Part shown: positions 1 through 20,288 of the stretch, one piece after another | Layout of the letters: every line of letters begins with the position of its first letter | Numbering within the stretch: the first letter of the stretch is position 1 | NCBI RefSeq assembly: GCF_056712565.1 | Contig: NZ_CM160072.1 | DNA length: 64,000 bases | Reading direction: 5' to 3' (one strand) | Notes under the pieces: generated by a model | Databases searched by the model: none | Told to the model about the DNA's origin: nothing | The model's input: only the letters and a program-made list of their open reading frames with translations | Translations under genes and position numbers: made by a program

Positions 1-748
1 CGCGATCGGTGTTCTGCACCATGTGCAACGGCACCCGGAACAGACGACAGATTTCTTCAAGCTGAAACTTGCGGGTTTCCAGGAACTGGCTGTCCTCGGC
101 GTTCAGCGCCATCGACTTCCAGTCCAGCCCCATCTCAAGGATCATCGGGCGGTGAGCATTACCAAGCCCGGTGTGACGCTCCTCAAAATCTTTCTTCAGG
201 CGCTCGTAAGCCTGATCTGACAGCGTCTGCTCTGTACGCAACACACCCGACGTCACCGCACCATTGCTGAACAGTCTGGCCCCGTGCTCTTCGGTCGCAG
301 CTGCCAGCGATATTGCCTCGCGGGCATAGGCGATGGGATTCAGCCCCACCAGACCGTCCAGCGTCAGCGTGCGCACATGCCAGATATCTTCCTGGCTCAG
401 CACATCCGTGGAGCCGTCCGAGAATGTGACCTGATAGACCGGCTCCCAGCTACTGTTAAGCTTCGGTACCACACAGCCAGGATCGACGGGCAGCAGTTCA
501 GCCACTTCGCCAAATGCTTTCACTTTGTAGGCGTAAAAGTTTCCCCGCAGGCACAGACAGGTGACCACCAGCTCCCAGAACTCCTGCGGCGTCATATAGC
601 CATTGGGATGCGTGGAGATCAGCTTATGCAGACGTTCGCCGGTGGCCCTCTGTTTCAGGCTGCCGTTCAGGTGATACAGATTGCAGGGCAACATCCCGAC
701 CGACTCTGCCAGCACCCTGACGCAGGAAAAAACCGCCGTCAGTCGCAT
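1..748 (-). CDS. Phage portal-like protein, partial (3' end beyond window start)
   Basis: Minus-strand reading frame opening at ATG 748..746; I hand-translated the first ~50 codons (MRLTAVFSCVRVLAESVGMLPCNLYHLNGSLKQRATGERLHKLISTHPN...) without a stop. Sits immediately downstream of terminase large subunit, the usual portal position. Family assignment is positional inference only. Confidence 0.4.
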   Translation of the reverse strand, partial: MRLTAVFSCVRVLAESVGMLPCNLYHLNGSLKQRATGERLHKLISTHPNGYMTPQEFWELVVTCLCLRGNFYAYKVKAFGEVAELLPVDPGCVVPKLNSSWEPVYQVTFSDGSTDVLSQEDIWHVRTLTLDGLVGLNPIAYAREAISLAAATEEHGARLFSNGAVTSGVLRTEQTLSDQAYERLKKDFEERHTGLGNAHRPMILEMGLDWKSMALNAEDSQFLETRKFQLEEICRLFRVPLHMVQNTDR

Positions 749-873
749 GGCCCGCTGGCTGCTGATCTGCTTTCCGGTATAGGTGTCGTATGACAGCCCG
801 ATAGCCTCCGCCAGCTCTGCTGGCGTGGTCACCGGCGCGTCACTTTTTCGTTGAAATAATCCCGAAAAGAACA

Positions 874-1056
874 CTATTTACCTCCGCCGACAGACAGCTG
901 TGTACGATCGAGATATCGCGCCACCAGCCACGACCAGAACAGGCACAGCGCCCCGGCAACAACAAAACCCGCCGGGGGATAAATCAGCCAGGCACCATAT
1001 GCCAGCAAAAGCGCACCCAGCACGCCCACCAGAGGCGCGAGAATCAGCATGATCAT
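874..1056 (-). CDS. Small hydrophobic protein (60 aa) between terminase and portal-like ORF
   Basis: ORF-track translation is almost entirely hydrophobic (two predicted TM segments); same strand as flanking structural genes. Confidence 0.3.
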
Positions 1057-1067
1057 AATTACCTCAG

Positions 1068-2801
1068 TTAAAGCGAGCGGATCCCGTAGGACTCAATGTG
1101 GTCAGACAGCGTGTCTTCTTTCTCGTACAACATGGCTCTGCCAACCGCCATAATCAGCGCAACTGCACCATCGATTTTGTTTTCCGCCTGCTCTTTGACG
1201 GGTTTCACCACATCATCGTTACCCGGAATGGTTTTGCCGACCACGTTGCCGATACACCAGGTCATGATGGGATTGCCATCATGATGAAAGCGCCCCGATT
1301 CAATTGCCGCTTCCAGCTCTTTCATCGGGTCGGACATGTTGGTGTAGTTCTGAATGATAGTGATGGGGTTCAGGTCTTCATCAGCAAGGTCATGTGACAA
1401 CCCGGTCGCCCCGAAGGGGTCGATGGGTGACTCACTGACCGGGCTGATTTTGTTCGCCGCTTTGGCCTCCTCGAGGATGTAGCGATAATCCACCTCCGCA
1501 CCATCGGTAACGGTCAGAACGCCCATTTCCACCCATTTCTGAAAGCGTTCGGCTGTCCGTCGATCTTCATTTTTCTCGACGCTGTACACCGTGTCATACG
1601 GTACCCAGAAACGCGGGGCCACACTGTAGTAATGCGTTTTACCGTCAATCTCGCGGGTATAAAGTCGCGCCATGCTGTTCATATCCAGCTTACGCGCCAG
1701 GTCAAAGGCCAGAATGCACGGCTGCCCCTCGAACTGCTCAAGGGTCAGTGATTTATCCTCGCAGCTCTGCCAGCTCACCAGGTTGAAATACGCCGAACGC
1801 GCCGACACCCAGATATTGAGGTGTTTTGTTTTAAAGACGTTTGCCAGACGGGCGTTATTTTTCGCACGCTGCTGCTGACTTAACAAAAATTCGCGATAAA
1901 CCGACACGCCAATATTTGGATTGGCTTTTTCCAGCACCTGCGGGTCGGTCCAGTCGTCACCTTCATCAACGGTATAGATGATCCCGAACAGTTCATCGTT
2001 AGGCACCGAGCCATTGAGCATCTCGATGACTTCCCGCCGCTTGTCGTAGCACGGCCCCTCAATGTTGTACCCGGCGGTGGTGATAGCCCACATCAGTGGC
2101 TGACGTCGCGCCCCCATCCCGGTAAGCATCGTGGTGTAAAGCGCATCGGTGGCGTGCTCGTGATATTCATCCACCACCGCACAGTGGGGTGATGAACCAT
2201 CACCGGGGTTACCGATCAGCGGTTCAAACCGCGCGCCATCCTCCGGACGGTTCATGTTTGAGGCGTTAACCTCAATCCCGAACGCTTCCGTCAGCATGGG
2301 TGTGCGTTTACACATCAGTCGAGCCGGGCGAAAGACTTCCCACGCCTGTTTCTCTGTCGTGGCACCGGAATACACTTCCGCGCCAAACTCGTTATCACAG
2401 GCAAAACAATACAGGGCAACACCGGCAGAGATTGCCGATTTGCCGTTCTTACGGGGGATTTCGGTATACACCTCCCGGAAGCGGCGCAGCCGGGAGCCTT
2501 TATTGACCCAGCCAAACGCGCAGCAGATCACAAAGAGCTGCCACGGCTCCAGCGTGATGGGCATCCTCTTAAATGCCCACTCACCCTTGGTGTGCGGCAA
2601 CAGCTGAATAAATTTGGCGGCCCGTTCAGCCAGGTCCTTGTCGAAGCGGTAACGAAACGACTTACTTTTTTCCGCCATCAGGTCATCAAGATGGCGCTGG
2701 CAGGCCTGAATCACAAACTGGCAGGCCACAATCTTTCCGCGCACGACATCCCGGGCATACTGATTGGCAGCATTTACGTTGGGGTAAGATTTCCGGCTCA
2801 T
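1068..2801 (-). CDS. Phage terminase large subunit
   Basis: 577-aa ORF with the characteristic size and ATPase/nuclease organisation of lambdoid terminase large subunits; preceded by small subunit and HNH endonuclease. Confidence 0.85.
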
Positions 2802-3301
2802 GATTCGATGATTTTCAGAAACGGGTTAGTGGCTTTCTTCTGCCCCGCCAGGCCAATCAGACGCTGACGGCTGCTGGGGTCGAGTCCGAGCATTGCCCCC
2901 GTGCTGCTCATCTCGGACTCCTGTTCTTTTTTGGCTGTCAGCTCCGGATTTTTGACCCTGCCGCCCATTGCGCCGGTGATGGTATTGCCCTGTATGGCAA
3001 TATTTTTCACAGCACGTAGCCAGAACTCATAGGCCACGCACCACCGCTCAAGCACCGCGAGGTCAGTCACGCACAGCAGGCCCTGACCGCAGAGTTCTTT
3101 GGTTGTCAGTTGCCACATGATCGTGGCGAGAGGGAGATCTTCTTCAGCGAACCACTCCGGTGGCTCAACACCTTTGATGGGCGTAAAAACAGGTTCATCT
3201 TTGTTCAGGGCTCGCTTGCCGGGGTTTCCGGCCAGCGCCTTGCGCGCCGTTGGCTTGGGGCGACGCCCGGAACGCCCCGCCGTTCCAGCCATATGCGGCA
3301 C
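2798..3301 (-). CDS. Phage terminase small subunit (P27-like)
   Basis: 167-aa basic protein directly upstream of and overlapping the large subunit by 4 bp. Confidence 0.7.
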
Positions 3302-3417
3302 TCCTGGTTAAATTTCATTTTTCGCGGGTATAAAAAAACGATGGGGCGGGCAGTCCGGAAGACGTCAGGTCACAGGGATTTGACCCGCCCCTCCCCTCAG
3401 AAAGTTGAGAATTATTA

Positions 3418-3768
3418 TCACTTCAGTCGTTCACGGGCCGTCTTCGCCTTATGACACGGCCAGCACAGGCTCTGCAGATTGCAGTCTGCATCAGTGCCGC
3501 CATGCGCTTTAGGGATGATGTGGTCAACGGTTTTCGCCTCACGCACCACACCGACATGCAGGCACAACTGACACAGGCCTTTGTCACGCTTCAGCACGCG
3601 CGCGCGGATAACATCCCACTTCGAACCGTAGCCGCGCTGGTGACGGGATTGTCCTGGCTTGTATTGTTTCCAGCCTTCGCTTTTGTGGCTTTCACAATAG
3701 CCTGACGGATCAGTGGTGGTTTGGCGGCAGCCGCGAACGCGGCAGGCTTTTGGGGTTCGTGGGGGCAT
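3418..3768 (-). CDS. HNH endonuclease (terminase-associated)
   Basis: 116 aa with cysteine-rich zinc-finger pairs (CRVRGCR, CQLCLH, CWPCH) and DHIIPKAHGG HNH motif; canonical position upstream of terminase genes. Confidence 0.85.
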   Translation of the reverse strand: MPPRTPKACRVRGCRQTTTDPSGYCESHKSEGWKQYKPGQSRHQRGYGSKWDVIRARVLKRDKGLCQLCLHVGVVREAKTVDHIIPKAHGGTDADCNLQSLCWPCHKAKTARERLK

Positions 3769-3870
3769 TTAAAGTGGGATCTAACTCTAATAATTTAAAA
3801 AATTTAATTGGGTCTTGATATTAATCACATAGACTCAATGCTCTTTAGTTCTTACATAGGTGGTTGTATT

Positions 3871-4311
3871 ATGAGTATCCCCAGTTTAGATGTTCATAAA
3901 GTTGTTAAGTGCGCAGAGCATAAAAAGGCTTTAGATGCAATATCTCTCAAACTTAAGAATAACATTATTGACTCAAGCTCTGAATACGATTTTCTTGGCG
4001 ACACAATAATTTTCAATAAAGATAAAAAAAATAGGTTAACCCTCAAACTTTCAACATATGAACTAGAACTTATTTTCAAAGAAACACTGCTAGTCATTGA
4101 TGAAGCTCCTGTATTGAAGTTTGCTGCCATTGACCCAACCGATGAAAATAACAACGAGCTGATTGATTTATTTTTATCCAAAGGTGGATTTATTTATATT
4201 AGAGAATACAAATCCGAGCCACATTATGAGTATGGCGACACTTCTCTATTTTTACATATACTTGACGCTACTCTTAAAGAGCTTAAATCTGCAAACAAAA
4301 TATCCTATTAA
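3871..4311 (+). CDS. Hypothetical protein, AT-rich moron
   Basis: ORF 3808..4311; likely start ATG 3871 (MSIPSLDV...) preceded by AGGTGG. Very low GC versus flanking phage genes, opposite strand to the structural/lysis genes, no recognisable motif. Confidence 0.45.
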   Translation: MSIPSLDVHKVVKCAEHKKALDAISLKLKNNIIDSSSEYDFLGDTIIFNKDKKNRLTLKLSTYELELIFKETLLVIDEAPVLKFAAIDPTDENNNELIDLFLSKGGFIYIREYKSEPHYEYGDTSLFLHILDATLKELKSANKISY

Positions 4312-4417
4312 ATAAATTTTTGCTAACATAGCCCCGCGCCATGACAAGATTTTCTGTTCTAGATGCAAGGGCTATGTGTGAATATCTATAAACAAAAACC
4401 CCATCCGGTGATTTTTG

Positions 4418-4669
4418 TCATTTTTTAGCCATCTCAATTGCGGCATCAAAAAGTCGTTCAAGAATAAAATCAGGGTACTGTAATTTTTCTTGCTCGATAT
4501 GAAGCTCATAAATTTTCCCTTCCCACTCCCATTTAAAATTAAATCCAGAAGCAGAAGGTGCGAAATGTGTTTTAGCTTTAGGGTTAGCGTAACCAGCAAC
4601 AGTCAACACATCAAACTTAAAATCTTGAGGTTTAATACGCATAATCATATCCTTTGCCAAGTTCATCAT
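4418..4669 (-). CDS. Hypothetical small protein (83 aa), AT-rich moron
   Basis: Intact ORF in the same low-GC island, convergent with 3871..4311; no recognisable domain. Confidence 0.35.
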   Translation of the reverse strand: MMNLAKDMIMRIKPQDFKFDVLTVAGYANPKAKTHFAPSASGFNFKWEWEGKIYELHIEQEKLQYPDFILERLFDAAIEMAKK

Positions 4670-4739
4670 TATTCTTCGCGATTATAAAACAATGAATAAA
4701 ATCATTAAAGCATAGACGTTAAATATCCTCAAAATGTGA

Positions 4740-5177
4740 TTAGTTGGGACATTGCGTCCTGATATACTCCTGCAAGTAATTGACCTGTGAGGTTATCTTG
4801 TCGATTCCACTTCGGAGACGGTAATAATGGAGTTCAGCATCTGCTGTAAGTCTAGGGCTTTCTCCATCGCCCATGCCGCTGGCTCCGGTCGTTGACTTTG
4901 TACAGGTGGCGGCGACTTGCAGGCGCTTATGCCCAGCAGAAACATCAGCACGAAGACTTTCGATAGTCGCATTAGCATCAGCAAGCTCCTTTGTATATCT
5001 GGCATCGAGTTCAGCTACATTACGTTGACGCTTCTGCATATCAGCGATGATGGATGTGGCTTTATCGCGCTGTACTTTGTAGACGATGGCGTCATCACGG
5101 TAATTATCAACAGCCCATGACAAGCAGACGATGATGCAGATAACCAGAGCGGATATAATCACCGTTACTCTGCTCAT
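4740..5177 (-). CDS. Rz-like i-spanin
   Basis: 145 aa with N-terminal TM anchor then coiled-coil-like periplasmic region; overlaps and follows the lysozyme gene; contains an embedded Rz1 frame. Confidence 0.75.
4793..4972 (-). CDS. Rz1-like o-spanin lipoprotein, embedded in Rz in another frame
   Basis: Internal start [18 protein letters not shown] gives a signal peptide with lipobox (ISAC) followed by a proline-rich segment ([14 protein letters not shown]), as in lambda Rz1. Confidence 0.6.
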
Positions 5178-5650
5178 ACCTGAATCTCTTTGACCGTTCC
5201 GCCGGCTTCTTTGAATTTTGCAATCAGGCTGTCAGCCTTATGCTCAAACTGACCATAACCAGCTCCCGGCAGTGAAGCCCAGATATTGCTGCAACGGTCG
5301 ATAGCCTGACGAATATCACCGCGATCAATCATCGGTAAAGCACCACGCTCTTTAATCTGCTGCAGTGCAACAGCATCCTGGCTTTTTGGAGAGAAGTCTT
5401 TCAGTCCAAGCTGTTTACGGTATGCATCCCACCAGCGGGAAAGAAGCTGGTAGCGCCCGGCAGCCGTTGATTTGAGTTTTGGGTTTAGCGTGACAAGTCT
5501 GCGAGGGTGATCGGAGTAATCAGTGAATATTTCTCCGCCCACAATGACGTCATAACCATGATTACGTGTCGGTTGTAGCCCATTATCCGTTCCTTCTGAC
5601 CAGGCCACCATATCGAGGAAAGCTTTACGCTGAGGATTAAGATTTTGCAT
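5174..5650 (-). CDS. Phage endolysin (lysozyme, T4/P21 R-like)
   Basis: 158 aa; N-terminus [24 protein letters not shown]...YDVIVGG is typical of lambdoid R lysozymes; sits between holin and spanin genes. Confidence 0.9.
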
Positions 5651-5942
5651 TTTTCACCCCTGTCAGTCGTTCCCAGAAGTACGTCAGTGCAACCGAACCC
5701 ATCGCACCACTAATCCCCGCAGTTGCGAGAATCATGTAAATACTGAATCCACTTTCGATACTGATTAGGCCACCAATAACACCGGTGAATCCTGATACAA
5801 CTATCTGAGCGAGGGCATTTATCCAGCTCCACGTTGCTTTACTCTGCTTCACATCAATCAGGTAACGGACAAGCCCCCCCCAACCTGCGATGATCAGCAA
5901 AACAAGCCAGAACGCTCCGGCAAGATTCTCTTTTTCGTGCAT
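5637..5942 (-). CDS. Holin (alternative upstream start at 6041)
   Basis: Small multi-TM protein overlapping the lysozyme start; internal start MHEKENLAGAFWLVLLIIAGWGG... gives ~101 aa with about three TM helices. Confidence 0.55.
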   Translation of the reverse strand: MHEKENLAGAFWLVLLIIAGWGGLVRYLIDVKQSKATWSWINALAQIVVSGFTGVIGGLISIESGFSIYMILATAGISGAMGSVALTYFWERLTGVKNAKS

Positions 5943-6051
5943 ATGAATAGCCGCAGTTTCGCCTCCGACAGAAAATCGGAGCGTGAAATGATATGTTGAT
6001 TTATTATTAATTCGAAAATTACATTCTAATTCATCAGGCATTGATGATTTT

Positions 6052-6090
6052 ATAATAATAAAGGCCGTTCGTTACGGCCTTTATTATTGA
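6052..6090 (-). terminator. Hairpin terminator between the late-region moron and the holin
   Basis: Perfect stem AAAGGCCGT / ACGGCCTTT (6060..6082) with 5-nt loop, flanked by A/T runs. Confidence 0.5.
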
Positions 6091-6093
6091 TAT

Positions 6094-6429
6094 TTATTTT
6101 ACATCCCAAGGTAGTTCCTCAAGAGAGAAGACTAATTCATTATCAATAATTTCGTATTCTGCATAACCTTCAACCTCTCCTGAGAAGTTATTGTCAACGC
6201 ATCCTTCATAATAGCTATATGGTGCTATAAAGTGAAACCCATATTCATCTATCTCTGTGATTTCAAAATTGTAGTAATCGTAAGAATATCGAATATCATC
6301 ATCAGAAATAGAACTAAGTACATAGTTATTAAATTTATCGGAATGCTTAACGATAAGTTCTGACAACGCGTCAAGATTCTCTGGAGAGATATTTCCTAAC
6401 GGTAATCTGTACTCAACGGCATTAATCAT
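6094..6429 (-). CDS. Hypothetical acidic protein (111 aa), late-region moron
   Basis: Low-GC ORF rich in D/E/Y, bracketed by two terminator hairpins, between the Q antiterminator and the lysis cassette. Confidence 0.5.
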   Translation of the reverse strand: MINAVEYRLPLGNISPENLDALSELIVKHSDKFNNYVLSSISDDDIRYSYDYYNFEITEIDEYGFHFIAPYSYYEGCVDNNFSGEVEGYAEYEIIDNELVFSLEELPWDVK

Positions 6430-6477
6430 ACAACCTCCTTTTTAACTGATATGAGGTTATATAATGTGTTTCAGTAC

Positions 6478-6510
6478 AAGTAAATAAAAACCCGCTCAAC
6501 AGCGGGTTCG
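6478..6510 (-). terminator. tR'-like rho-independent terminator downstream of Q
   Basis: Minus-strand stem AACCCGCT-GTTG-AGCGGGTT followed by a U-rich tract; about 105 nt downstream of the Q stop, where lambdoid PR'/tR' lie. Confidence 0.5.
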
Positions 6511-6614
6511 TGAAAATTATCAACGGCAGACATACAAAGCCCATCGTTGAGAAAATCTTATCCATATTTTTTGAAAAATGCAAGCTTCATGTCACTATCT
6601 TCGGCGAAAATCAC

Positions 6615-7367
6615 TTATCTCGTCACCTTTCTCAATTGTGTTTCAGCATATGCTTCTTCCTGCCAGCACTTTGTTACTAGTTTATCAATTACGTCTGCAT
6701 ATCCTTTGTACCACTGATAATCAGTCAGGTCTGGAACCAGCTTCTGGACATGACGTCGTGCCAGTGTAGTCGGTAAACGGCTAAACCGGTTTCCATTGCA
6801 ACGCCCACAAGTCTTATAAACAGGCGTGCCATGAAGCCGGGTTCTTTTTTCATCCAGGACAATACCTTTACCCTTACACCCTCTGCACGCCGTGCTGACT
6901 TCTCCCTTGCCATGACAATGCTGACACAGTTCCTTCACCCACTCTTCTTTGATAACGGATTCCCCGCTTCTGGAATGTTTCACCACTTCGCGCAATACAT
7001 TATGAAATCCAGTACCAGTACAATGCTCACAGCGAGCCTTACTTGCCGCAGACCTGGAATAATCAGCAAAGGCAAAATTCACAAGGTAAGGGATGATCTG
7101 TAACCGGGTTTCTTCACTCAATTTGTTCAATGTCGGGTTATCCAGTGCCATCGCGTAATTGAGCAGGCCTTCAATCGCAAACTGAGGATCCTGAACACCA
7201 ACTTTTGCCAGGAATAAGGCAAACCCAAGCGGTGCTTTCGACTGCACCATCCCCTGCGCAGCCATTACATCCGTAATTGTTAAACCACCCGAGCCTGTCG
7301 CCGATGCGTCATCGCTCAATTTTGGAGATTTTGGGGAGTAATATTTCGGTAAGGCTTCAAGGTTCAT
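6615..7367 (-). CDS. Late-gene antitermination protein Q-like
   Basis: Multiple CxxC zinc-binding pairs (CEHCTGTG, CQHCHGKG, CRGCKGKG, CGRCNGN); located immediately upstream of tR' and the lysis cassette. Start may be 7409 or internal ATG 7367. Confidence 0.6.
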   Translation of the reverse strand: MNLEALPKYYSPKSPKLSDDASATGSGGLTITDVMAAQGMVQSKAPLGFALFLAKVGVQDPQFAIEGLLNYAMALDNPTLNKLSEETRLQIIPYLVNFAFADYSRSAASKARCEHCTGTGFHNVLREVVKHSRSGESVIKEEWVKELCQHCHGKGEVSTACRGCKGKGIVLDEKRTRLHGTPVYKTCGRCNGNRFSRLPTTLARRHVQKLVPDLTDYQWYKGYADVIDKLVTKCWQEEAYAETQLRKVTR

Positions 7368-7380
7368 GCTCGTTCTCCAC

Positions 7381-8376
7381 TTACACCAGTACGCCAATTG
7401 CCAGCGCACGATCGATAAAACGAAATATCAGCTCCAGCTGGGAGCCATACATCTCTTCAAATGCCACGGTATCCGCATGCAGCTCGTCGTGATGCTTTCT
7501 GCACAAAGGCAACACAAAAAGGTCATGCGCTTTTGTACCCATTCCACCCTGTCCGTGGCCTATCAGGTGGTGGGGATCATCAGCGGGCTTTCCACAACAT
7601 GCACACGACTGTGTCTTAACCCAGCGCGTGTACTTTTCATTAACCCAGCGGCGACGTTTTGGGCGTAACATAAAAGACTCCGGCGACTCCGGATCCACTT
7701 TCAGCGCCAGCACCTTTTTCGCCTTATCCTGGATGATGCTGGTGGCAGGAACCGAAGGCACAAGGTCACTTTCCCGGGTGACAGACGGCACAACAGGCTT
7801 CGGTAATCTCAGTGCCTTACGGGCTGCACTTTCCGGTAAGGCATCCGCCAGATCATTACGAACCAGCCACCAGCACAGTTCCGGCATTGTCACAACGTGA
7901 CTGTCATCAAAACCGAGATCCCGACGCACAACAGACAACACCCAGCGGGCACAGTTATCCGTTGCCATTGATTCCAGCCGTTCCGTGAACTGATCGCGAA
8001 GCAGGTTATCGCAGTGCCAGCACAGACGGATTGCGCCCGGCGCGTGTCGCATTGTGGTCATGTTCTCGCTGTGCCATCCGGAATGAGGCCACTGACAGCC
8101 CTTTTCACGAAGTAACCAGCTTTCAAGACATTCCACACCCCCCGCACGACGAATAACTGCCTCATTGCGGAACACGGCCCGAATGGCAGGATCATCCGCC
8201 AGCGGTTGTGATGCCGCCGGAACGGCACCACTGGCAAAAGATGAATAACGTTCCGGCTCAGGCTCCAGCAGGACACGCCCCTGCATAAACAGGGGCATCA
8301 GCTCTGAACCGGGCCTGAACAATACGATCCCCATACGCGGGGCAATTTCAGGGGTCAGTAGTGCTCTCACGGTCAC
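7381..8376 (-). CDS. DUF968-family protein (YdfU-like) with C-terminal HNH-like motif
   Basis: C-terminal CACCGKPADDPHHLIGHGQGGMGTKAHDLFVLPLCRKHHDELH resembles the zinc-finger/HNH signature of DUF968 proteins of E. coli lambdoid prophages. Confidence 0.6.
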   Translation of the reverse strand: MTVRALLTPEIAPRMGIVLFRPGSELMPLFMQGRVLLEPEPERYSSFASGAVPAASQPLADDPAIRAVFRNEAVIRRAGGVECLESWLLREKGCQWPHSGWHSENMTTMRHAPGAIRLCWHCDNLLRDQFTERLESMATDNCARWVLSVVRRDLGFDDSHVVTMPELCWWLVRNDLADALPESAARKALRLPKPVVPSVTRESDLVPSVPATSIIQDKAKKVLALKVDPESPESFMLRPKRRRWVNEKYTRWVKTQSCACCGKPADDPHHLIGHGQGGMGTKAHDLFVLPLCRKHHDELHADTVAFEEMYGSQLELIFRFIDRALAIGVLV

Positions 8377-8377
8377 C

Positions 8378-9175: not shown

Positions 9176-9194
9176 ACTTCGTTTCTCCTCTTAA

Positions 9195-9584
9195 TCAGGC
9201 AGCTGCACCCGCCGTTTTCTCGTACTTACTGATAGTGATCTCGACCTTCCCTTCCGGGATAACCGGTCCCCACTCCACCAGCATTCTTTTCACCTGACTG
9301 TCGTCTTCCCACACACCCGCGTGGGTCAGGGCGTCAAACAGCGCCTTGTTATAGTTGTCCAGATCGCGGATCCGGTTATCCGGAGGAAACAACACGATCT
9401 CCACTGAAGCAGGTGCCGACGTTGGTTTTGGCAGACGACGTAACTGCTCAACTATTGCTGCACACGCCGCGCTCTGGAATTTGCGCCCCGCCGCGCTTAT
9501 CAGGCTCTTACCAGCAAACGCCCCTTTGTTGGGGTGTCGCCAGTACGTGTTCACGCTGGGCGGAAACGGCAGAATCAGCTTCAT
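9195..9584 (-). CDS. rusA: RusA-family Holliday junction resolvase
   Basis: 129 aa, MKLILPFPPSVNTYWRH...DLDNYNKALFDALTHAGVWEDDSQV matches the RusA signature. Confidence 0.85.
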   Translation of the reverse strand: MKLILPFPPSVNTYWRHPNKGAFAGKSLISAAGRKFQSAACAAIVEQLRRLPKPTSAPASVEIVLFPPDNRIRDLDNYNKALFDALTHAGVWEDDSQVKRMLVEWGPVIPEGKVEITISKYEKTAGAAA

Positions 9585-10590: not shown

Positions 10591-11051
10591 TCTTCACCCG
10601 ATGCAGCGCGCTTGCTGCTTTTCCGTAAGCACCGCTCACGACGCGCCAGAAAATTGTTTCGTTCTGGCTGGGAGTGGCTTTCACGGAATGCCGCCATCCA
10701 CACGGTTGCAGCACGACGGTATAAACCCCTGGACTCCAGTTCTTCAGCCTGGCGGGTCAGGCACAAAATCACCCGTGGATCGTTAGTGCCGACATAGAAA
10801 TTGCGCACAGGTCTGGTTTCTCGAACTGGTTGTGGTTCCGGTTCCTGCGCTCTCTCAGTCAGGCGCGGGAAATGTCTGCGTGTATCTCCTTCACAACGGT
10901 GAGCCACACGCCCACTCTGACGTAACTTGCTTGCTGACTGCAGAACGCGCTGTCGTGAGTAACCTGCAAAAGCATCCGCAATGTCACCGGAAGTACACCC
11001 CGGATGGGCTTCAATGAATTTCTGAACGTCATTTAACAGACTCATGATCAC
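10557..11051 (-). CDS. Hypothetical prophage protein, possibly PerC-like regulator
   Basis: 164 aa; central region (LTRQAEELESRGLYRRAATVWMAAF) resembles PerC-family activators; weak assignment. Confidence 0.4.
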   Translation of the reverse strand: MIMSLLNDVQKFIEAHPGCTSGDIADAFAGYSRQRVLQSASKLRQSGRVAHRCEGDTRRHFPRLTERAQEPEPQPVRETRPVRNFYVGTNDPRVILCLTRQAEELESRGLYRRAATVWMAAFRESHSQPERNNFLARRERCLRKSSKRAASGEEWYLSGNYVGA

Positions 11052-11989
11052 CCCCTGAATCCTGCCGGGATCTGGCTGTAGTCCACGTTGTCGTAACTGG
11101 CTTTGAAGTACGGGTCCTCGCGTTTTTCGGTGTACGTACTTACGGACGGCGATAAGCGCAGGGAAAGCTCATCCCATTTTTCCCGCAGCTTCGACGGGCT
11201 GAGCACGTTACGGCACCAGAACGGATCGCGGCTGACGCGGCTGTACATCTCGCAGATTTGTTTGTGAGTACGACCATCCTGCACACACATCAGGCGAATT
11301 TCGTTTGCCCAGGCTGTCCAGTTCGGTTCTTTGGGACGAACCACCTCGCCGTCACATTCGGCAGCCTGCTCGTACAGGGCGATGATTTTTTTCCAGAGCC
11401 ACTGTGCGCAGGTCAAATCATCCTGCGTTCCCCACTGGCGCTTTTTAGGGCTGAATACAACAGCATCAGGATGGCGAGTTAAAAACTCCTGTTCAGCCGT
11501 CTGCGTGTCCGGTTGCGAAGCGTCCGGACGAGAAGTTTTTTTATCTGACGGATCATGTTTTGATTTTACTGACGGATCCCCGCCAGATTCTGACGGGTGA
11601 AAACCCGCTTTTTTGCCAGATTTCGACGCATCAAATTTTGACGGGGCAGATTTTGATGCGTCAGATTTTGACGGGTCAGAATCTGACAGTTGAGAAAATG
11701 CCGCTGCCTGAAGCTTCGCAACGTTAAGCTGATAAACATTCGACGCATTGCGGTTACCCTGGCGACGCGCCTTACGCGTTAACCAGCCTTCTGCTTCCAG
11801 CCGTGCGATAGCCGTTCTGACGGTACTCATCCCCGCGCCAATCTGGCGGGCAATGGTTTCAATTGATGGCCAGCACACACCTTCGTCATTACTGAAATCA
11901 GCCAGGCGGGCCATAATTGCCACGCTGGATAACTTCATGCCTGACGCAGCGCAACCATCCCATACATAGCCGGTTAATTTAGTGCTCAT
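11048..11989 (-). CDS. Phage replication initiation protein (HTH N-terminal domain, repeat-containing linker)
   Basis: 313 aa; N-terminal winged-helix region (CWPSIETIARQIGAGMSTVRTAIARLEAEGWL) typical of lambdoid O-like initiators; internal repeat peptide DASKSAPSKFDASKSGKK encoded by tandem DNA repeats. Confidence 0.65.
   Translation of the reverse strand: MSTKLTGYVWDGCAASGMKLSSVAIMARLADFSNDEGVCWPSIETIARQIGAGMSTVRTAIARLEAEGWLTRKARRQGNRNASNVYQLNVAKLQAAAFSQLSDSDPSKSDASKSAPSKFDASKSGKKAGFHPSESGGDPSVKSKHDPSDKKTSRPDASQPDTQTAEQEFLTRHPDAVVFSPKKRQWGTQDDLTCAQWLWKKIIALYEQAAECDGEVVRPKEPNWTAWANEIRLMCVQDGRTHKQICEMYSRVSRDPFWCRNVLSPSKLREKWDELSLRLSPSVSTYTEKREDPYFKASYDNVDYSQIPAGFRG
11541..11692. repeat. Iteron-like tandem repeats inside the replication gene (putative origin)
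   Basis: About eight imperfect ~15-bp direct repeats with core (c)AGATTTTGACGG, e.g. agattttgatgcgtc / agattttgacgggtc / agaatctgacagttg contiguous at 11648..11692. Confidence 0.5.
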
Positions 11990-12333
11990 GACCGACCTCT
12001 ATTTCCCTGAATTTACGACGAAACTGTTCGAGCGGACTGAAGCATTCATGCTCATAGCCTTCGCGGAGGTAGATAACCCGTTGTGTTTCCGGTTCCCAAC
12101 GAATGACTCTGACGGGCACTCCGTAGTGATCTTTGAACCAGCGGTTAACTTGTCGCAAAGGACTGTCTCCTTCTGCCGGTTGAAATCACCCACAGCCCAC
12201 TCAGCAAAGCTGTGGGTTACAATTTCCCTGTCACCTGGTACATTTACTGCATAGCAATACTCCACCTTCGCTTTTCCACCCGGTACAGGAAGCGCAATCA
12301 GTTGCGAGCGACGGTAGTGTGTTGTTAAACTGT

Positions 12334-12897
12334 TCATGCGTTAGTTTCTCCACAGTCACGACACGCCACGGCGCCCGGAGCTGCACACTCGCGGGCGTCA
12401 CTACTTTCTGAAACGCAAAAGATTTTGTAGACCAGTGCTGCATGCTCCTGCAGCTTCGAAATTGAGAGGTACAGCTCATCGTTAATTGCTGTCTTCTCAT
12501 GCGGTTCCACTACACCGTCTTCAATTGCTGAACGAATCTGTTTTGAATAACTGCCGATCTGTTCAATGACCTCCAGCAGGCGTTGGTTGATATCGGCGTT
12601 GTCCACATCCTCGACGTCAGGAAGAGACACAAAGACGCCATTTGCAGACTGCGCCACAGCATCAGCAATGAAGTGAGTGCCACCAGCACGCTGTAAAACC
12701 ATTGCCCATCCCAGCGGGAAAATCTGATCGCCATCTGCACGAAGGCGGTTGAATAAAGCGTTTTCTGTTACATCGAGCCAGTCAGCCGCTTCAGCGTAAC
12801 CACCCGGCAACGCCGCGATCGTTTTTCTGGCAGCTTTCACGTACCACTCAGGCTGTTTTTCTATTTTCCAGTGATGCTTACCCACGATTAGCCTCAT
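12334..12897 (-). CDS. Prophage regulatory protein, CII-like / YdaT-like
   Basis: 187 aa immediately downstream of the cro-like gene in the rightward early operon; family call is weak. Confidence 0.4.
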
Positions 12898-12928
12898 CGT
12901 TCTGTGGTTAAAAATTGAAAGTGTTCTG

Positions 12929-13129
12929 CTAATCTTTCGGATAGATATCCGGTCTTAAGTCAGATTTCGTAATTGCACCTGACGTGCATTGCTCAAGTTT
13001 TTTAGCCAGCACAAAACTGGCTTTTTTATAGCCATTGAAAACCAGCCGTAAGTAGCCAGGTGTTGAGCCAACTTTTCCGGCCAACTCGCCCTGCTGTTCT
13101 TTGGTTAAAGAGTCCCAATACGCTTTCAT
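12929..13129 (-). CDS. Cro-like HTH regulator (YdaS-like)
   Basis: 66-aa protein transcribed divergently from the CI-type repressor with a palindrome-containing intergenic region between them. Confidence 0.6.
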   Translation of the reverse strand: MKAYWDSLTKEQQGELAGKVGSTPGYLRLVFNGYKKASFVLAKKLEQCTSGAITKSDLRPDIYPKD

Positions 13130-13219
13130 ACAATGTGTACCTCAGGTGTACATATTACATGATTGAAATGAACCTTCAAGATACTTGTACCTTAACGGTA
13201 CAAGGGTTTTAATTTCGTT
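13130..13219. promoter_or_regulatory. Immunity-region operator/promoter between cro-like and cI-like genes
   Basis: Two palindromes sharing a GTAC core: TGTAC-N7-GTACA (13136..13152) and CTTGTACC-N5-GGTACAAG (13184..13204), in a 90-bp AT-rich divergent intergenic region. Confidence 0.55.
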
Positions 13220-13894
13220 ATGAAAACAATCCATGACATCCGGCGGTCTAACGCCAGAAAACTGAGAGATGGTGTTGGCGGGAATTCTTCCTTTGCCACT
13301 ATGATTGATCGCGAGCCAACCCAGACCAGCAGGTTTATGGGAGATGGTGCTACTAAAAATATCGGTGACAGCATGGCACGACACATCGAAAAATGTTTCG
13401 ACCTGCCTGTCGGATGGCTCGATCAAGAACACCAGACAACGAACATCACAAAAAAACCTGATGTTTCAATCACTAATAAACAAATCACATTAGTCCCTGT
13501 CATATCATGGGTACAGGCCGGAGCATGGAAAGAAGTTGGATATTCTGAGGTTGATTTGAGCACAGCAGAAACGTATCCCTGCCCTGTACCCTGTGGGGAA
13601 ATGACTTATATCTTGCGGGTGATAGGTGATTCAATGATTGATGAGTACCGCCCGGGAGACATGATTTTTGTCGATCCTGAAGTACCTGCCTGCCACGGTG
13701 ACGACGTTATTGCATTGATGCACGATACAGGTGAAACCACCTTCAAAAGGTTGATAGAAGATGGGACACAGCGTTATCTCAAAGCGTTAAACCCAAACTG
13801 GCCTGAGCCTTACATTAAGATCAACGGTAATTGCTCTATAATTGGTACTGTGATTTTCTCAGGAAAACCAAGAAGATACAAAATCAAAGCCTAA
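13220..13894 (+). CDS. CI-type repressor with S24 (LexA-like) autopeptidase domain
   Basis: 224 aa; N-terminal HTH region and C-terminal S24 domain with catalytic serine context VIGDSM. Confidence 0.85.
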   Translation: MKTIHDIRRSNARKLRDGVGGNSSFATMIDREPTQTSRFMGDGATKNIGDSMARHIEKCFDLPVGWLDQEHQTTNITKKPDVSITNKQITLVPVISWVQAGAWKEVGYSEVDLSTAETYPCPVPCGEMTYILRVIGDSMIDEYRPGDMIFVDPEVPACHGDDVIALMHDTGETTFKRLIEDGTQRYLKALNPNWPEPYIKINGNCSIIGTVIFSGKPRRYKIKA

Positions 13895-13907
13895 TCAATG
13901 TTTATGA

Positions 13908-13929
13908 ACCTGCTTCGGCAGGTTTTTTT
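13908..13929 (+). terminator. Rho-independent terminator after the repressor gene
   Basis: Stem ACCTGC-TTCG-GCAGGT followed by TTTTTTT. Confidence 0.6.
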
Positions 13930-14046
13930 ATACTTGACAATGTACCTTTGGGATACATAATGTACCCAAGAGAAACAACAAACAGGCAGGACGCCCACGA
14001 AGTAGCCGCCTGGGGCATATGAAGTCCAGGATGATTCGTTAGCAAC

Positions 14047-14075
14047 AAAAAAGCGCCCTATAGGACGCTTCGCTC
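14047..14075 (-). terminator. Terminator hairpin downstream of 14097..14609
   Basis: Minus-strand stem AAGCG-N10-CGCTT followed by a U-rich tract. Confidence 0.4.
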
Positions 14076-14096
14076 TTTAACAATCTGGATGACTTA

Positions 14097-14609
14097 TTAC
14101 TCAGATTTGAACTTTGGTTCTGGCAAAAGAGGAGGAGTTGAGTCCTCGAATCGTAGCCAGTGCTCCCAGATATCGTGGGATTGTAATTCCAGAAGACCAA
14201 TTTGACGTGATGCAACTGCAGTGCCAGCTATAGTTCCTCCTGCATAATCAACCTGGACGGACTTTGACGCTTTCTCAATTAATTCTGTCCAAGCTTCACT
14301 TTCCGCGTTAAAAGAAGCAGTTAATTCCTGCAGACGCTGTGGATCATCCTTGTTGTCTTGTTTCAAACGATTCAGGGCGGCCACCGAATACTTATTCTTA
14401 ACCCAACTAACCTGAGCTAACTGAACTCTCTGACAAGCGTCCATATCAGTAGTTGTTTCCTGAGGCATATCAAAGCAGGAAATAAAAAAAGTCTCAACAC
14501 CATCATTTAGACTACTGCTCGGCTGGTTCAAAGCATCAGAAGCATTGGATGCTATCGGTATTATCAGTGCTACCGACAGAATCAAACGTTTAACATAAAT
14601 CGCTCCCAT
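14097..14609 (-). CDS. Secreted/periplasmic protein with cleavable signal peptide (possible DUF1311/LprI-like)
   Basis: N-terminal KRLILSVALIIPIASNA-SD looks like a Sec signal peptide with an AxA-type site; two cysteines in the mature part; low GC; convergent with the repressor gene. Confidence 0.45.
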   Translation of the reverse strand: MGAIYVKRLILSVALIIPIASNASDALNQPSSSLNDGVETFFISCFDMPQETTTDMDACQRVQLAQVSWVKNKYSVAALNRLKQDNKDDPQRLQELTASFNAESEAWTELIEKASKSVQVDYAGGTIAGTAVASRQIGLLELQSHDIWEHWLRFEDSTPPLLPEPKFKSE

Positions 14610-14896
14610 TTAATTATCCCCTCTAAGAACAGAGTCATCCAGATTAGCCGAATCCTTGTTGTTGGGGAATAACCAGGCCCACCTCGCCTGATGTGGCTAA
14701 AAGCAGGCACATAACAGCTAAGTATTTTCAACCAGAGAGAATCCTTAGCGTTGTGGTGAATGCGGCTCAGCGCACGCGGGTTAAGGTTGAGGCTGACAGT
14801 CGACCTTCTGTGGATACCCACCCGCCTGGTGTGCAACCTTCGCCAGGCACCGGGAGGCACCCGGCACCACAACTTTATGCTGTGTGTAGTCCTGGC

Positions 14897-14940
14897 GGTA
14901 CCAGCTTGTACCCTTGCTTCCGGCTGGTACCGCTCTTTTT
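14897..14940 (+). terminator. Terminator-like hairpin in the noncoding region upstream of the yfdP-like gene
   Basis: Perfect 9-bp stem GGTACCAGC / GCTGGTACC (14897..14905 and 14923..14931) followed by CTCTTTTT; the stem also carries GTAC motifs like the immunity-region operators. Confidence 0.4.
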
Positions 14941-15077
14941 ACAAAACAGAGAAGAGCATCACCGGACGACGGGCTCATAACCCAATCCACCCGGGCGGCT
15001 GCCACCGCAGGTGTTCTTCTCTGTTTTGTGGAGAAACCAACCGACCTTGCAGGGTCGATATGATGAGGAGCAGCAAA

Positions 15078-15440
15078 ATGGCTAGCGAACGCAGTACCAA
15101 CGTGCAGGAATTTATCGGGGAGCTGGACGGCGGCGTATTTGAAACCAAAATCGGCGCAGTTCTCAGTGAAGTCGCTTCCGGTGTGATGAACACGAAAACC
15201 AAAGGTAAGGTCTCGCTCAACCTGGAAATCGAACCGTTTGATGAGAACCGTGTGAAAATAAAACACAAACTCTCATATGTTCGTCCGACTAACCGCGGGA
15301 AAATTTCCGAAGAAGACACCACCGAAACGCCGATGTATGTCAATCGCGGTGGTCGCCTGACTATTCTGCAGGAAGACCAGGGACAATTACTGACTCTTGC
15401 CGGTGAACCTGACGGAAAACTCCGCGCAGCAGGTCATTAA
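15078..15440 (+). CDS. YfdP-like prophage protein
   Basis: ~120 aa starting MASERSTNVQEF..., with GAGGAG RBS 7 nt upstream; directly precedes YfdQ- and YfdR-like genes as in the E. coli CPS-53 prophage. The longer ORF from 14760 is an unlikely extension. Confidence 0.5.
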   Translation: MASERSTNVQEFIGELDGGVFETKIGAVLSEVASGVMNTKTKGKVSLNLEIEPFDENRVKIKHKLSYVRPTNRGKISEEDTTETPMYVNRGGRLTILQEDQGQLLTLAGEPDGKLRAAGH

Positions 15441-15505
15441 TATCGTTCTTAATTAACTGATTATTTATCTCATCACTGAATATCTTTATATAGTGAGGAC
15501 TTATT

Positions 15506-16330
15506 ATGTCTCAGAACTTAGACGCAACCGCAATTAATCAAATCCATGCCCTTATTTCTGCTCAGGGTGTTAATGAAATTATCAGTAAGATTGGTGCCGA
15601 CGCAGTGGCATTACCTGAAAATTTCCGCATTCATGATCTGGAAAAATTTAATTTAAATCGCTTCCGTTTCCGTGGTGCGCTTTCCACTGCCAGCATCGAT
15701 GACTTTACCCGTTATTCTAAAGATCTTGCGGATGAAGGCACCCGCTGCTTTATCGATGCCGATAATATGCGTGCCGTCAGTGTGCTTAACCTGGGTACTA
15801 TTGATGAGCCTGGTCACGCAGATAACACCGCCACTCTCAAACTGAAAAAGACAGCACCGTTCTCTGCTCTGTTGTCTGTTAACGGCGAGCGTAACTCCCA
15901 GAAGTCACTGGCAGAATGGATTGAAGACTGGGCCGACTACCTTGTGGGCTTTGATGCTAATGGTGATGCCATTCAGGCAACAAAAGCGGCTGCGGCAGTC
16001 CGTAAAATCACGATTGAAGCAAACCAGACCGCTGATTTTGAAGACAATGACTTCAGCGGCAAACGCTCCCTGATGGAGTCTGTCGAAGCGAAGACCAAAG
16101 ATATTATGCCAGTGGCATTTGAATTTAAATGCGTTCCGTTTGAAGGCCTGAAAGAACGTCCGTTTAAATTACGCCTCAGCATTATCACTGGCGATCGTCC
16201 TGTACTGGTTCTGCGCATTATTCAGCTGGAAGCAGTGCAGGAAGAAATGGCTAACGAATTTCGTGATCTGCTTGTTGAGAAATTCAAGGACAGCAAAGTA
16301 GAAACCTTTATTGGTACTTTTACCGCCTGA
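15506..16330 (+). CDS. YfdQ-like protein (DUF2303)
   Basis: 274 aa, same length and gene neighbourhood as E. coli YfdQ. Confidence 0.65.
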
Positions 16331-16457
16331 TTTCATTACTGCAAATGCCCCTGCGGGGGCATTTATGGAAACGTAATTGACTCAATAATCGCCGGATGGT
16401 GAGGGCTTTCTTTTACCAGAATTCAGCGCGGTGCAGCGCATATACGTGGAGAACAAA

Positions 16458-16982
16458 ATGTCATTTATTAAAACTTTTTCCGGGAAGCATTTTTATTATG
16501 ACAGGATAAATAAAGACGACATCGTTATTAACGATATCGCGGTTTCTCTTTCAAATATCTGTCGCTTTGCAGGACATCTTTCACATTTCTACAGCGTCGC
16601 CCAACATGCGGTGCTTTGCAGCCAACTGGTACCGCAGGAATTTGCTTTTGAAGCGTTAATGCATGATGCAACAGAAGCGTATTGCCAGGACATCCCGGCG
16701 CCACTGAAACGCCTTCTTCCTGACTATAAACGGATGGAAGAAAAAATAGACGCCGTAATCCGTGAGAAATACGGGTTACCCCCGGTTATGAGTACGCCCG
16801 TGAAATATGCCGATCTCATCATGCTGGCAACCGAACGCCGCGATCTCGGGCTTGATGATGGCTCTTTCTGGCCCGTACTGGAAGGTATCCCGGCAACAGA
16901 GATGTTCAAAGTTATTCCACTGTCGCCAGGCCATACCTATGGGATGTTTATGGAACGCTTTAAAGAGTTAACTGAGTCGTAA
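16458..16982 (+). CDS. HD-domain 5'-deoxynucleotidase, YfdR-like
   Basis: HD motif (ALMHDATEAYCQDIP) and histidine-containing N-terminal region; start MSFIKTFSGKHFYYDR preceded by GGAG. Confidence 0.7.
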   Translation: MSFIKTFSGKHFYYDRINKDDIVINDIAVSLSNICRFAGHLSHFYSVAQHAVLCSQLVPQEFAFEALMHDATEAYCQDIPAPLKRLLPDYKRMEEKIDAVIREKYGLPPVMSTPVKYADLIMLATERRDLGLDDGSFWPVLEGIPATEMFKVIPLSPGHTYGMFMERFKELTES

Positions 16983-17090
16983 AAATCAGCACGTACGAAT
17001 TCAAACTCTGCCATAAAAGAACATATAAGTAATTTATTAACATATAGATATAGGTTATATTACAAATTGAAAAATTATTGGAGAGCAACA

Positions 17091-17957
17091 ATGAATCAAA
17101 ATCCATTCTCATTCTATGACTTTCTTGGATATTTAATACCAGGTGGTTTTTTTATCCTATTAATGTATTTCTGTGGTTTGACATTCGATCTAGATATTGT
17201 TATTGACTTAAGTGAATTGCTCAGAGGTCAAAGTCAAATCTTTGGCATTTTGAACTACGCTTCAATAGTTATTATATCTTATATAGCTGGACATTTTATT
17301 TCTATCACGTCAGCATTTTTTATCGAAAAATACATGAATAAAGAATTAGGATATCCTTCCAAATATCTATTTAAAAAATTGATAGATACCTCAGAAAGCA
17401 TTTGTAGCCCATCATGCGATGAGAGAAGCGCTGATAAAAAAACAAAAATAAAGAATCGCATAATCAAATGCGTATTATGTCCAATAATACTATGGGATTT
17501 TATAACACAAAAACTATGTTATTCTCAATCTCTACCATTTCATTTAGCTAATACAACATGGTTAATGATCAAAGAAGGTTATGAGAAAAAGTTCATAACA
17601 AATCGCCAATTATTACAAGATAAAAACGGACTTGATGATGATCTCTTCAGATTGGCATATCATTATGTTTATGAGTTTTCAAAACAACATCAAACAAAAA
17701 TTCAAAACTATGTTGCATTATATGGTTTTTGCAGAAACATATGTTTAATCTTTATAATTTCATTTTGGGTATCAGTTCCAACCTTTATTTATCGATTATG
17801 TACTCATAGTGATTATCTTTATAGTTTACTTTCAATAATGCTTAGCTTTTTCTTCGTCTATGTTTTCTATGTTGGTTTTGTTAAATTTTATAGAAGATAT
17901 ACTTTAGAAGTATTAATGGCATTTGCTGTACTTCAAAGTAACGACACTATTCGTTAA
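17091..17957 (+). CDS. Integral membrane protein, very low GC (candidate exclusion/abortive-infection moron)
   Basis: ~288 aa from ATG 17091 (RBS GGAGAG); two predicted TM helices at each end with a ~130-aa soluble central region; strongly AT-rich codon usage. Confidence 0.5.
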   Translation: MNQNPFSFYDFLGYLIPGGFFILLMYFCGLTFDLDIVIDLSELLRGQSQIFGILNYASIVIISYIAGHFISITSAFFIEKYMNKELGYPSKYLFKKLIDTSESICSPSCDERSADKKTKIKNRIIKCVLCPIILWDFITQKLCYSQSLPFHLANTTWLMIKEGYEKKFITNRQLLQDKNGLDDDLFRLAYHYVYEFSKQHQTKIQNYVALYGFCRNICLIFIISFWVSVPTFIYRLCTHSDYLYSLLSIMLSFFFVYVFYVGFVKFYRRYTLEVLMAFAVLQSNDTIR

Positions 17958-17998
17958 TAATGTTGCTCCCGTGTGCAGACGGGATAATGGAGAAACGT

Positions 17999-18205
17999 AT
18001 GCTGAACCTCGATTGTGTTCCTATCTCAACTTATTGCAAAGAAACTGGCGAAACTCCTGAAGCAATAAACAAACGTGTACAGCGCGGTGTTTGGCGTGAA
18101 GGTGTTCAGGTTTTAAAGGTTGAAGGCGTTAAGGAGAGGTGGATTGATCTTAGTGAGGTTGCAAAATGGGCCAGACAAAACTGCTCAAACTACCGCGCGG
18201 CGTAA
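17999..18205 (+). CDS. Excisionase-like protein
   Basis: Small basic protein directly upstream of and overlapping the integrase gene; GGAG RBS 8 nt before ATG 17999 (alternative start 17987). Confidence 0.55.
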   Translation: MLNLDCVPISTYCKETGETPEAINKRVQRGVWREGVQVLKVEGVKERWIDLSEVAKWARQNCSNYRAA

Positions 18206-19338
18206 CAATCAGGAAACACCACCAGGGAGAAACGATCAATATAACTTTCACCTACAAAGGAGTTAGATGTCGTGAGCCGCTTTCCAATCTGGAAGTAACA
18301 CCAAAGAACATTAAATACGCCGAGCGTACACTCGGCGAAATCCATAATAAGATCGAAAGGGGAACATTCATTTATGCAGAATATTTTCCCCGTTCTGCTC
18401 GTTTGAAAATTTTTGGTAATGCTGCTGCAAGCAAAACGGTAAAGATGTACCTGGACGAATATCTTGAAATCTGCGAAACAAGAAAACTTTCACCCTCTAC
18501 GATTGGTGGCTATAAAAAATGCCGTAGTGCGTTAGCCTCACTTCACATTTGCCCTGCAAGTGAATTAACACCAGCAACCCTGAAAGCGTGGATTCAAAGC
18601 CAGAAAACAACCTTAAAAACCATTCGCAACCAGTTATCTTTCCTACGGTCAGCACTTGATGAAGCCGTGACCGATGGGGTACTTCAAATTAACCCCGTAT
18701 CGTTAGTAACAGCTTCGCGCTACCAAAGTGATAAGTCAGAAGCAGAAAGCAGCTATGTGGTTGATCCGCTATCACCAGCAGAAGTTGATGCATTACTAGC
18801 AGCAGCCGGAAACAAACAATGGGAAAATCTGTTCCGGTTCGCCATACATACAGGCCTGCGTAGTTCTGAATTATGTGCCCTACGATGGCATGATATCGAC
18901 TTTGTTGGAAAAACAGCCCATGTTCAGAGCGCAAGTGTTGTCGGAGTTATCAAAGGAACAAAGACAAAAGCCGGTACCCGTAAAGTTGAACTGACTGAAG
19001 AAGCAATGTTGGCGTTGATAAACCAGAAGCCATTTACATTCATGAAGGATGCTACTGTCTTTGAAGATCCAAAGACCAATAAACCCTGGGCAAGTGCTGA
19101 TGCAATTAGGAAAAAAGCATGGGTGCCAACATTGCGAAAAGCAGGTATTCGTTACAGAAACCCATATCAAACCAGGCATACATTCGCCACCAGCCATATC
19201 AGCCGGGGAGCAAACCTGTTTTGGCTTGCGGCTCAAATGGGCCATAAAGGGCCTGAAATGTTATTCAGGCACTATGGACAATACTTGAAAGAGTATGATG
19301 GGAGGGCAAGTATCAAGGATAAAAAGGCTTTATTTTAA
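18166..19338 (+). CDS. Tyrosine integrase (phage integrase family)
   Basis: 390 aa with catalytic-domain signatures (LRSSELCALRWHDID; HTFATSHISRGANLFWLAAQMGHKGPEMLFRHYGQY), reading toward the att remnant. Confidence 0.9.
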   Translation: MGQTKLLKLPRGVTIRKHHQGETINITFTYKGVRCREPLSNLEVTPKNIKYAERTLGEIHNKIERGTFIYAEYFPRSARLKIFGNAAASKTVKMYLDEYLEICETRKLSPSTIGGYKKCRSALASLHICPASELTPATLKAWIQSQKTTLKTIRNQLSFLRSALDEAVTDGVLQINPVSLVTASRYQSDKSEAESSYVVDPLSPAEVDALLAAAGNKQWENLFRFAIHTGLRSSELCALRWHDIDFVGKTAHVQSASVVGVIKGTKTKAGTRKVELTEEAMLALINQKPFTFMKDATVFEDPKTNKPWASADAIRKKAWVPTLRKAGIRYRNPYQTRHTFATSHISRGANLFWLAAQMGHKGPEMLFRHYGQYLKEYDGRASIKDKKALF

Positions 19339-19947: not shown

Positions 19948-19957
19948 CTATCGCCTC

Positions 19958-20284: not shown

Positions 20285-20288
20285 AAAA

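Follow-up and report, generated by a model that had tools for sequence, protein, structure and literature searches.

A probable 43.1-kb SfV-like prophage at the 3' end of ssrA in ST95-type extraintestinal Escherichia coli

SfV-like phages, named for Shigella flexneri phage SfV, have been defined as lambdoid Myoviridae (PMC3603311). The group includes SfIV and related E. coli prophages, among them a relative of full length, located at icd, whose deposited record is named vB_EcoM-689R6. Citrobacter rodentium phage PhiNP has been shown experimentally to use the 25-bp 3' end of ssrA as both attP and attB, and its integration reconstitutes the gene (PMC6456863). Features of both systems meet in a 64,000-nucleotide stretch of E. 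coli DNA (assembly GCF_056712565.1, contig NZ_CM160072.1), which we call the window: its positions 1-21376 (21.4 kb) very probably make up the right-hand half of a temperate SfV-like prophage, 43.1 kb long, inserted in the 3' end of ssrA. This high confidence applies to the identity and type of the prophage and to its ends and attachment site, and its inducibility is graded apart. On its predicted gene content the prophage joins a lambda-style order of regulatory, replication, lysis and integration genes to an HK97-type head and a Mu-type contractile tail (Table 1). Families were assigned by Pfam and PHROGs scans of predicted open reading frames (ORFs), and amino acid identities to SfV were obtained by tblastn with all SfV proteins.

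The host lineage is extraintestinal E. coli. The prophage is of a known kind, and some hundred public genomes already contain it in annotated form. What the analysis adds is a definition of the type, ends and attachment site of the prophage in E. coli of sequence type 95 (ST95), including strains S88 and ATCC 11775; the significance beyond such bookkeeping is small, and a cargo cassette near the right end is the sole mildly novel item. Positions 1-19500 of the window are 100% identical to ST95-type chromosomes (SF-468, ExPEC XM, the type strain ATCC 11775, S88 and others), and at least 80% of this 19.5-kb region is present in 102 of 5426 complete genomes. SF-468 is thus 100% identical over these positions, and S88 departs from the window by 6 mismatches, ungapped, across 21.8 kb. 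These two genomes, both ~100% identical to the window, stood in for the strain's own upstream DNA.

A first-pass annotation of the window, made from its letters alone, had placed the head and tail genes beyond the window and had named truncated or missing structural genes, or the lack of a second attachment site, as the outcome that would speak against its reading. In the window-identical genomes the structural genes and the second site are both present. To the left of the window, S88 and SF-468 encode a prohead protease, an HK97-type major capsid protein and connectors, followed by a tail set comprising tail terminator, sheath, tube, tape measure, DNA circulation protein, Mu gp44-48-type baseplate, and fibres with their assembly proteins; a truncated tail-fibre invertase closes the region. 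The portal gene, of which the window holds the N-terminal part, extends past the window start and is 413 residues long in both annotations. The gene sets that mark membership of the SfV-like group are both found: the Mu-like contractile tail genes (sheath, tube, gp43-48 homologues) in the S88 and SF-468 DNA upstream, outside the window, and the HK97-type head genes (portal, prohead protease, major capsid protein) with a P27-type small terminase subunit (TerS), the large subunit (TerL) and an HNH endonuclease.

The right end of the element was formerly put at 19338, the stop codon of int. Its actual end is an attR core ~2 kb further on, past a three-gene cargo. The full 25-bp core, the PhiNP-type ssrA 3' end, reads GGTTCAACTCCCGCCAGCTCCACCA; in the window, phage DNA runs through the last T of ...GGACT, then comes the core CGGGTTCAACTCCCGCCAGC, then the native flank CAATCATG..., and native ssrA-downstream DNA continues up to glaH at 22061. 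At the left end, attL holds a perfect 25-bp core in SF-468, where it sits at intact ssrA, and in S88, where it is a perfect copy of the ssrA 3' end; behind the core lies a slightly diverged, phage-borne copy of the ssrA downstream region and terminator. A direct repeat of ~180 bp joins the S88 left flank to window positions 21357-21530, and the start of the repeat is the ssrA 3' end. Some strains have an empty site that runs ssrA, ~680 bp, glaH, with homology to the window from ~21341-21348, and SF-468 has the 43.1-kb element directly between intact ssrA and the glaH-side remnant. In such an arrangement the phage would bring a replacement ssrA 3' end and terminator at attL, and the displaced native 3' end would stay at attR beside glaH.

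The ssrA remnants were found by alignment to intact ssrA because they are too short for Rfam, scans with which returned nothing at the gathering threshold in window 1-23000 and the S88 left flank; ARAGORN reported no tRNA or tmRNA near the prophage inside the window. The ~170 bp of homology past the attL core was also considered as a bacterial duplication, a reading rejected on several single-nucleotide polymorphisms relative to the native flank and on the phage cargo that follows; it is countered as well by the ssrA phage LLS, which has an annotated tmRNA pseudogene and an attP matching that segment. In S88 a ~34-kb P2-like prophage (2798285-2832380) lies between ssrA and the SfV-like prophage, and this tandem array shows the ssrA-glaH interval to be a tandem integration hotspot. 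SF-468 has no P2-like prophage at this place, and the replication endonuclease gene of the one in S88 is frameshifted.

The integration module is closely related to that of PhiNP. Amino acid identity to the PhiNP counterparts is 91% for Int and 93% for Xis, the 25-bp ssrA core is shared in full at attL and in part at attR, and both elements carry cargo between int and attP. Similarity at the DNA level, by contrast, is confined to the xis-int segment, and the PhiNP cargo is one AAA ATPase.

In overall architecture the prophage follows SfV. Amino acid identities to SfV reach 97-100% in the tail module, 98% in TerS and TerL, 94% in the HNH endonuclease, 98% in the antiterminator Q and in Dam, 99% in RusA, 88-99% between the nin-like genes and orf40-45, and 94-99% between yfdPQR and orf30-32. 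The repressor genes cI and cro are 99.6 and 100% identical, and the prophage is therefore of the SfV immunity type. Unlike these, the portal and major capsid proteins are just 25-28% identical and therefore represent a different HK97-type head allele. The tblastn search returned no match for SfV Int, Xis, holin, Rz, Rz1 or GtrABV, and the SfV replication protein matches over 33 residues only. Cargo lies beside attP in both phages, with the SfV gtr genes in the equivalent att-flanking position, but the SfV cargo consists of O-antigen glucosylation genes and that of the present prophage of defence-type genes. The icd relative vB_EcoM-689R6 was examined as a source of virion evidence and rejected, being a predicted prophage region with host genes.

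All genes listed by the first-pass annotation exist, in the order and on the strands it gave, according to the ORF list, Pfam, PHROGs and the S88 RefSeq annotation. Its claim that the lysis, immunity and integration genes are intact also holds, in that they are of full length and have the expected motifs, and the same is true of Q. The repressor has the features of an SOS-inducible CI/LexA-type protein, as read from its sequence: an Ala-Gly cleavage site (VQAGAW), a catalytic dyad formed by a serine (GDSM) and a lysine (FKRL), and putative cognate operators. The latter are TGTAC-N7-GTACA palindromes, of which the 64-kb window contains just three, all around cI: two within the 90-bp cro-cI spacer and the third 47 bp past cI. 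Inside the O-like initiator gene lie five to six 15-bp iterons (11581-11696). The promoter-like site and terminator at 6488-6595 are presumably the target of Q antitermination, and SfV has an annotated terminator at the equivalent place after Q.

These features support a standard SOS-inducible, Q-dependent lytic programme, which would run as follows. CI, of the SfV immunity type, would occupy the operators on both sides of cI until SOS-activated RecA induced its self-cleavage. Rightward transcription would then express cro, the cII-like gene, the O-like initiator (with the origin iterons in its own gene) and Q, and leftward transcription yfdPQR, xis and int. Q would let transcription pass the terminator at 6488-6509 and continue through the genes for holin, endolysin and spanins into HNH, TerS, TerL and the structural genes, and Int with Xis would recombine the two ssrA-derived cores to release the element.

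On this gene content we lean, without great assurance, towards a prophage that can still be induced. Several observations weigh against that reading or against parts of it. Our literature search brought up no data on induction, excision or virions of this prophage, and the best isolated-phage record covers at most 66% of the region and proved to be a predicted prophage. In S88 the tail-fibre invertase is reduced to a fragment and the DinI-like gene to a pseudogene; in SF-468 the baseplate J gene, which lies outside the window, has a frameshift from the one indel that separates this genome from S88 over 21.8 kb. Of the 25-bp core, attR in this lineage (window 21357-21381) keeps 18 contiguous bp and is then missing 5 (TCCAC).

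The same lesions would suit a grounded (cryptic) prophage, one that looks complete but has lost the ability to excise or to form infective particles and owes its retention to its cargo, and we hold this to be possible, if somewhat doubtful. In its favour are the attR deletion, which is absent from strain F8 with its same phage arm and complete core, the invertase remnant, the DinI pseudogene and the SF-468 baseplate frameshift. The ~100% identity among the best-matching genomes, over the 19.5 kb and over the 501 bp that span the attR deletion (100% identical in them), is consistent with vertical inheritance more than with recent infection, and defence genes lie at the left end, for PD-T4-3 and for a type IV restriction enzyme of GmrSD type. 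Against a grounded state, S88 has every essential gene for regulation, lysis, packaging, head and tail at full length, and its structural genes are all intact. The deletion begins ~10 bp past the T-loop and leaves intact the inverted CGGG/CCCG arms around it, which we infer to be the crossover region, and the close identity of Int and Xis noted above is to proteins of a phage shown to be functional.

Both att-flanking ends of the prophage, which border attP in the circular phage, carry cargo, and the comparison among related elements shows them to be exchangeable slots. Beside attL and outside the window (positions 6961-12055 of the S88 left flank, L001) is a defence cluster with a gene for a DpnII/MboI-type nuclease-domain protein, the known defence genes for PD-T4-3 (GIY-YIG; E=7e-137) and the GmrSD-type enzyme, and the DinI-like pseudogene, and then comes the truncated invertase. 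The slot between int and attR holds an operon of three genes (19330-21200), and in strain R6 and PhiNP it holds other cargo. The trio is kept together, with overlapping genes, in distant gammaproteobacteria and varying surroundings, namely in Salmonella prophages, a Rheinheimera island and a Photobacterium insertion. In Salmonella it likewise lies between a similar int and the ssrA core, and in Rheinheimera it adjoins NERD-domain genes. The 303-residue protein has a STAS-like N-terminal half; its AlphaFold2 model (mean predicted local distance difference test score, pLDDT, 87) gave weak GHKL-fold matches when searched with Foldseek against the PDB (E about 1e-3, template modelling score about 0.2-0.3), so that the model supports a GHKL fold but no specific function.

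PADLOC 2.0 returned no match for this cassette, and our text search, in which DUF4325 came up once in each of three papers, found none that treats the cassette or gives DUF4325 a function. Tentatively, the three genes may form an undescribed phage-defence or abortive-infection system. As such they could act as a partner-switching module in which a kinase/ATPase and a STAS antagonist control a membrane effector.

Differences in GC content between the end cargo and the rest, and the variation of the cargo among related prophages at the same site (R6, PhiNP, the icd-site relative), might also be expected if three elements were juxtaposed, namely a prophage core and independent defence islets at its ends, outside the phage genome. 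We consider this quite improbable: SF-468 has two ssrA-derived cores only, which enclose everything, with no further integrase between them, the homologous Salmonella cassette again lies between the same int type and the ssrA core, and the SfV gtr cargo occupies the equivalent att-flanking position. A canonical lambda-like siphovirus prophage, for which the order int-xis-...-cI-cro-cII-O-...-Q-lysis-terminase-portal speaks since it is that of lambda, has next to no chance of being correct and is refuted by the tail gene content, given a sheath, tube, DNA circulation protein and Mu gp44-48-type baseplate upstream that are 97-100% identical to those of SfV, a P27-family TerS with adjacent HNH as in HK97 and SfV, and no P-type helicase-loader family returned when the examined ORFs were scanned with Pfam and PHROGs.

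The SfV-like prophage does share with lambda the order of its integration, immunity, replication, Q and lysis modules, a CI with an S24 self-cleavage domain, an O-like initiator with iterons inside the gene, a promoter-like site and terminator after Q, and an embedded Rz1; it differs in its contractile Mu-like tail, HK97-type head and P27-type TerS with HNH. The earlier description of the element as canonically lambdoid stands for the gene order and fails for the tail, so the prophage is lambdoid only in the SfV-like sense. By the stricter usage of that word, Q and an O-like gene are present, but the tail is contractile and family scans gave no P-type loader.

Table 1. Features of the prophage portion of the window, with positions in the window, strand and basis of assignment
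Feature	Position	Strand	Basis
Portal gene, N-terminal 291 codons	1-874	-	PF04860, E=3e-77
ymfR-like small membrane protein, hydrophobic, 60 aa (amino acids)	874-1056	-	phrog_502
TerL	1068-2801	-	Pfam
TerS, P27/Terminase_4 family	2798-3292	-	Pfam
Packaging-associated HNH endonuclease	3418-3768	-	Pfam
Low-GC ORF, 146 aa	3871-4311	+	no family match
Low-GC ORF, 74 aa	4418-4642	-	no family match
Rz i-spanin	4740-5177	-	PF03245; N-terminal transmembrane segment
Rz1 o-spanin, embedded in Rz	4793-5005	-	phrog_3198; lipobox ISAC, proline-rich stretch
Endolysin	5174-5650	-	phrog_90
Holin	5637-5942	-	PF16083
Low-GC moron between late terminator and holin gene, GC 0.33	6094-6429	-	phrog_13663, function unknown
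Strong intrinsic terminator, just downstream of Q	6509-6488	-	consensus scan
PR'-like promoter, just downstream of Q	6595-6566	-	consensus scan
Antiterminator Q	6615-7367	-	PF03589, E=3e-54
DUF968/HNHc	7381-8370	-	Pfam, PHROGs
KilA-N	8378-9175	-	Pfam, PHROGs
RusA	9195-9584	-	Pfam, PHROGs
LexA DNA-binding-domain protein	9581-9907	-	Pfam, PHROGs
Dam methylase	9904-10557	-	Pfam, PHROGs
PerC-like activator	10557-11051	-	Pfam, PHROGs
O-like initiator	11048-11989	-	phrog_391 'replication initiation O-like', E=6e-135
DUF4222	11979-12158	-	
CII-like activator (Phage_CP76)	12334-12885	-	PF06892, phrog_101
Cro-like repressor	12929-13129	-	phrog_35
TGTAC-N7-GTACA palindromes around cI	13136-13152, 13186-13202, 13941-13957		pattern scan
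CI repressor with S24 peptidase domain	13220-13894	+	PF00717
Secreted or lipoprotein-like moron	14097-14609	-	phrog_7681; weak LprI match; N-terminal signal-like segment
yfdP	15078-15440	+	Pfam, PHROGs
yfdQ (DUF2303)	15506-16330	+	Pfam, PHROGs
yfdR (5'-deoxynucleotidase)	16458-16982	+	Pfam, PHROGs
Multi-transmembrane moron, 288 aa, 28% GC	17091-17957	+	phrog_12528, function unknown; four to five hydrophobic segments
Excisionase Xis	17999-18205	+	phrog_2917
Tyrosine integrase Int	18166-19338	+	PF12167, PF00589
199-aa protein, N-terminal transmembrane segment	19330-19929	-	
DUF4325 STAS-like protein, 108 aa	19958-20284	-	Pfam
STAS-like + GHKL-ATPase protein, 303 aa	20289-21200	-	weak HATPase_c_2 match (Pfam)
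attR core CGGGTTCAACTCCCGCCAGC, copy of ssrA T-arm/acceptor 3' end	21357-21376	+	alignment with empty site, SF-468 attL, F8 and R6 attR

Several RefSeq gene names in the prophage (ymfK, ymfT, ymfL, ymfQ, ymfR, tfaE, yfdN and yfdR), with the family names YfdP and YfdQ on two further genes, recall two prophages of E. coli K-12, the ymf and tfaE names being, we take it, those of e14 genes and the yfd names those of CPS-53 (KpLE1) genes. Both K-12 elements are decayed, e14 lying at icd and CPS-53 at argW; the present prophage, unlike them, is a full-length 43-kb element at ssrA.

A few reading frames of the prophage call for separate remark. The yfdP gene is the end of a 226-residue plus-strand ORF (14760-15440) that runs into it in frame and has a phage-family match in its C-terminal 125 residues only; at the same place the RefSeq annotation has yfdP preceded by a frameshifted pseudogene (14753-15063). 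The two ORFs between HNH and Rz have a GC content of 0.32-0.36 and no Pfam, PHROG or PADLOC match, and PADLOC likewise returned no match for the secreted or lipoprotein-like moron next to cI. The multi-transmembrane moron upstream of xis has the lowest GC content in the prophage and a weak match to a Csx27 membrane protein model.

Two loci elsewhere in the window may be recorded. Between emrB and luxS, an insertion at 49366-51182 on the plus strand, with no PADLOC match, holds two genes, one for an RNA ligase (PF09414) and one for a kinase-like AAA_33 ATPase, a unit that looks like an RNA-repair pair. A tRNA array at 54800-55253 comprises three tRNA-Arg(ACG) genes and a tRNA-Ser(GCU) gene; S88 has four tRNA-Arg genes at the locus, and one repeat unit has therefore been lost or gained.

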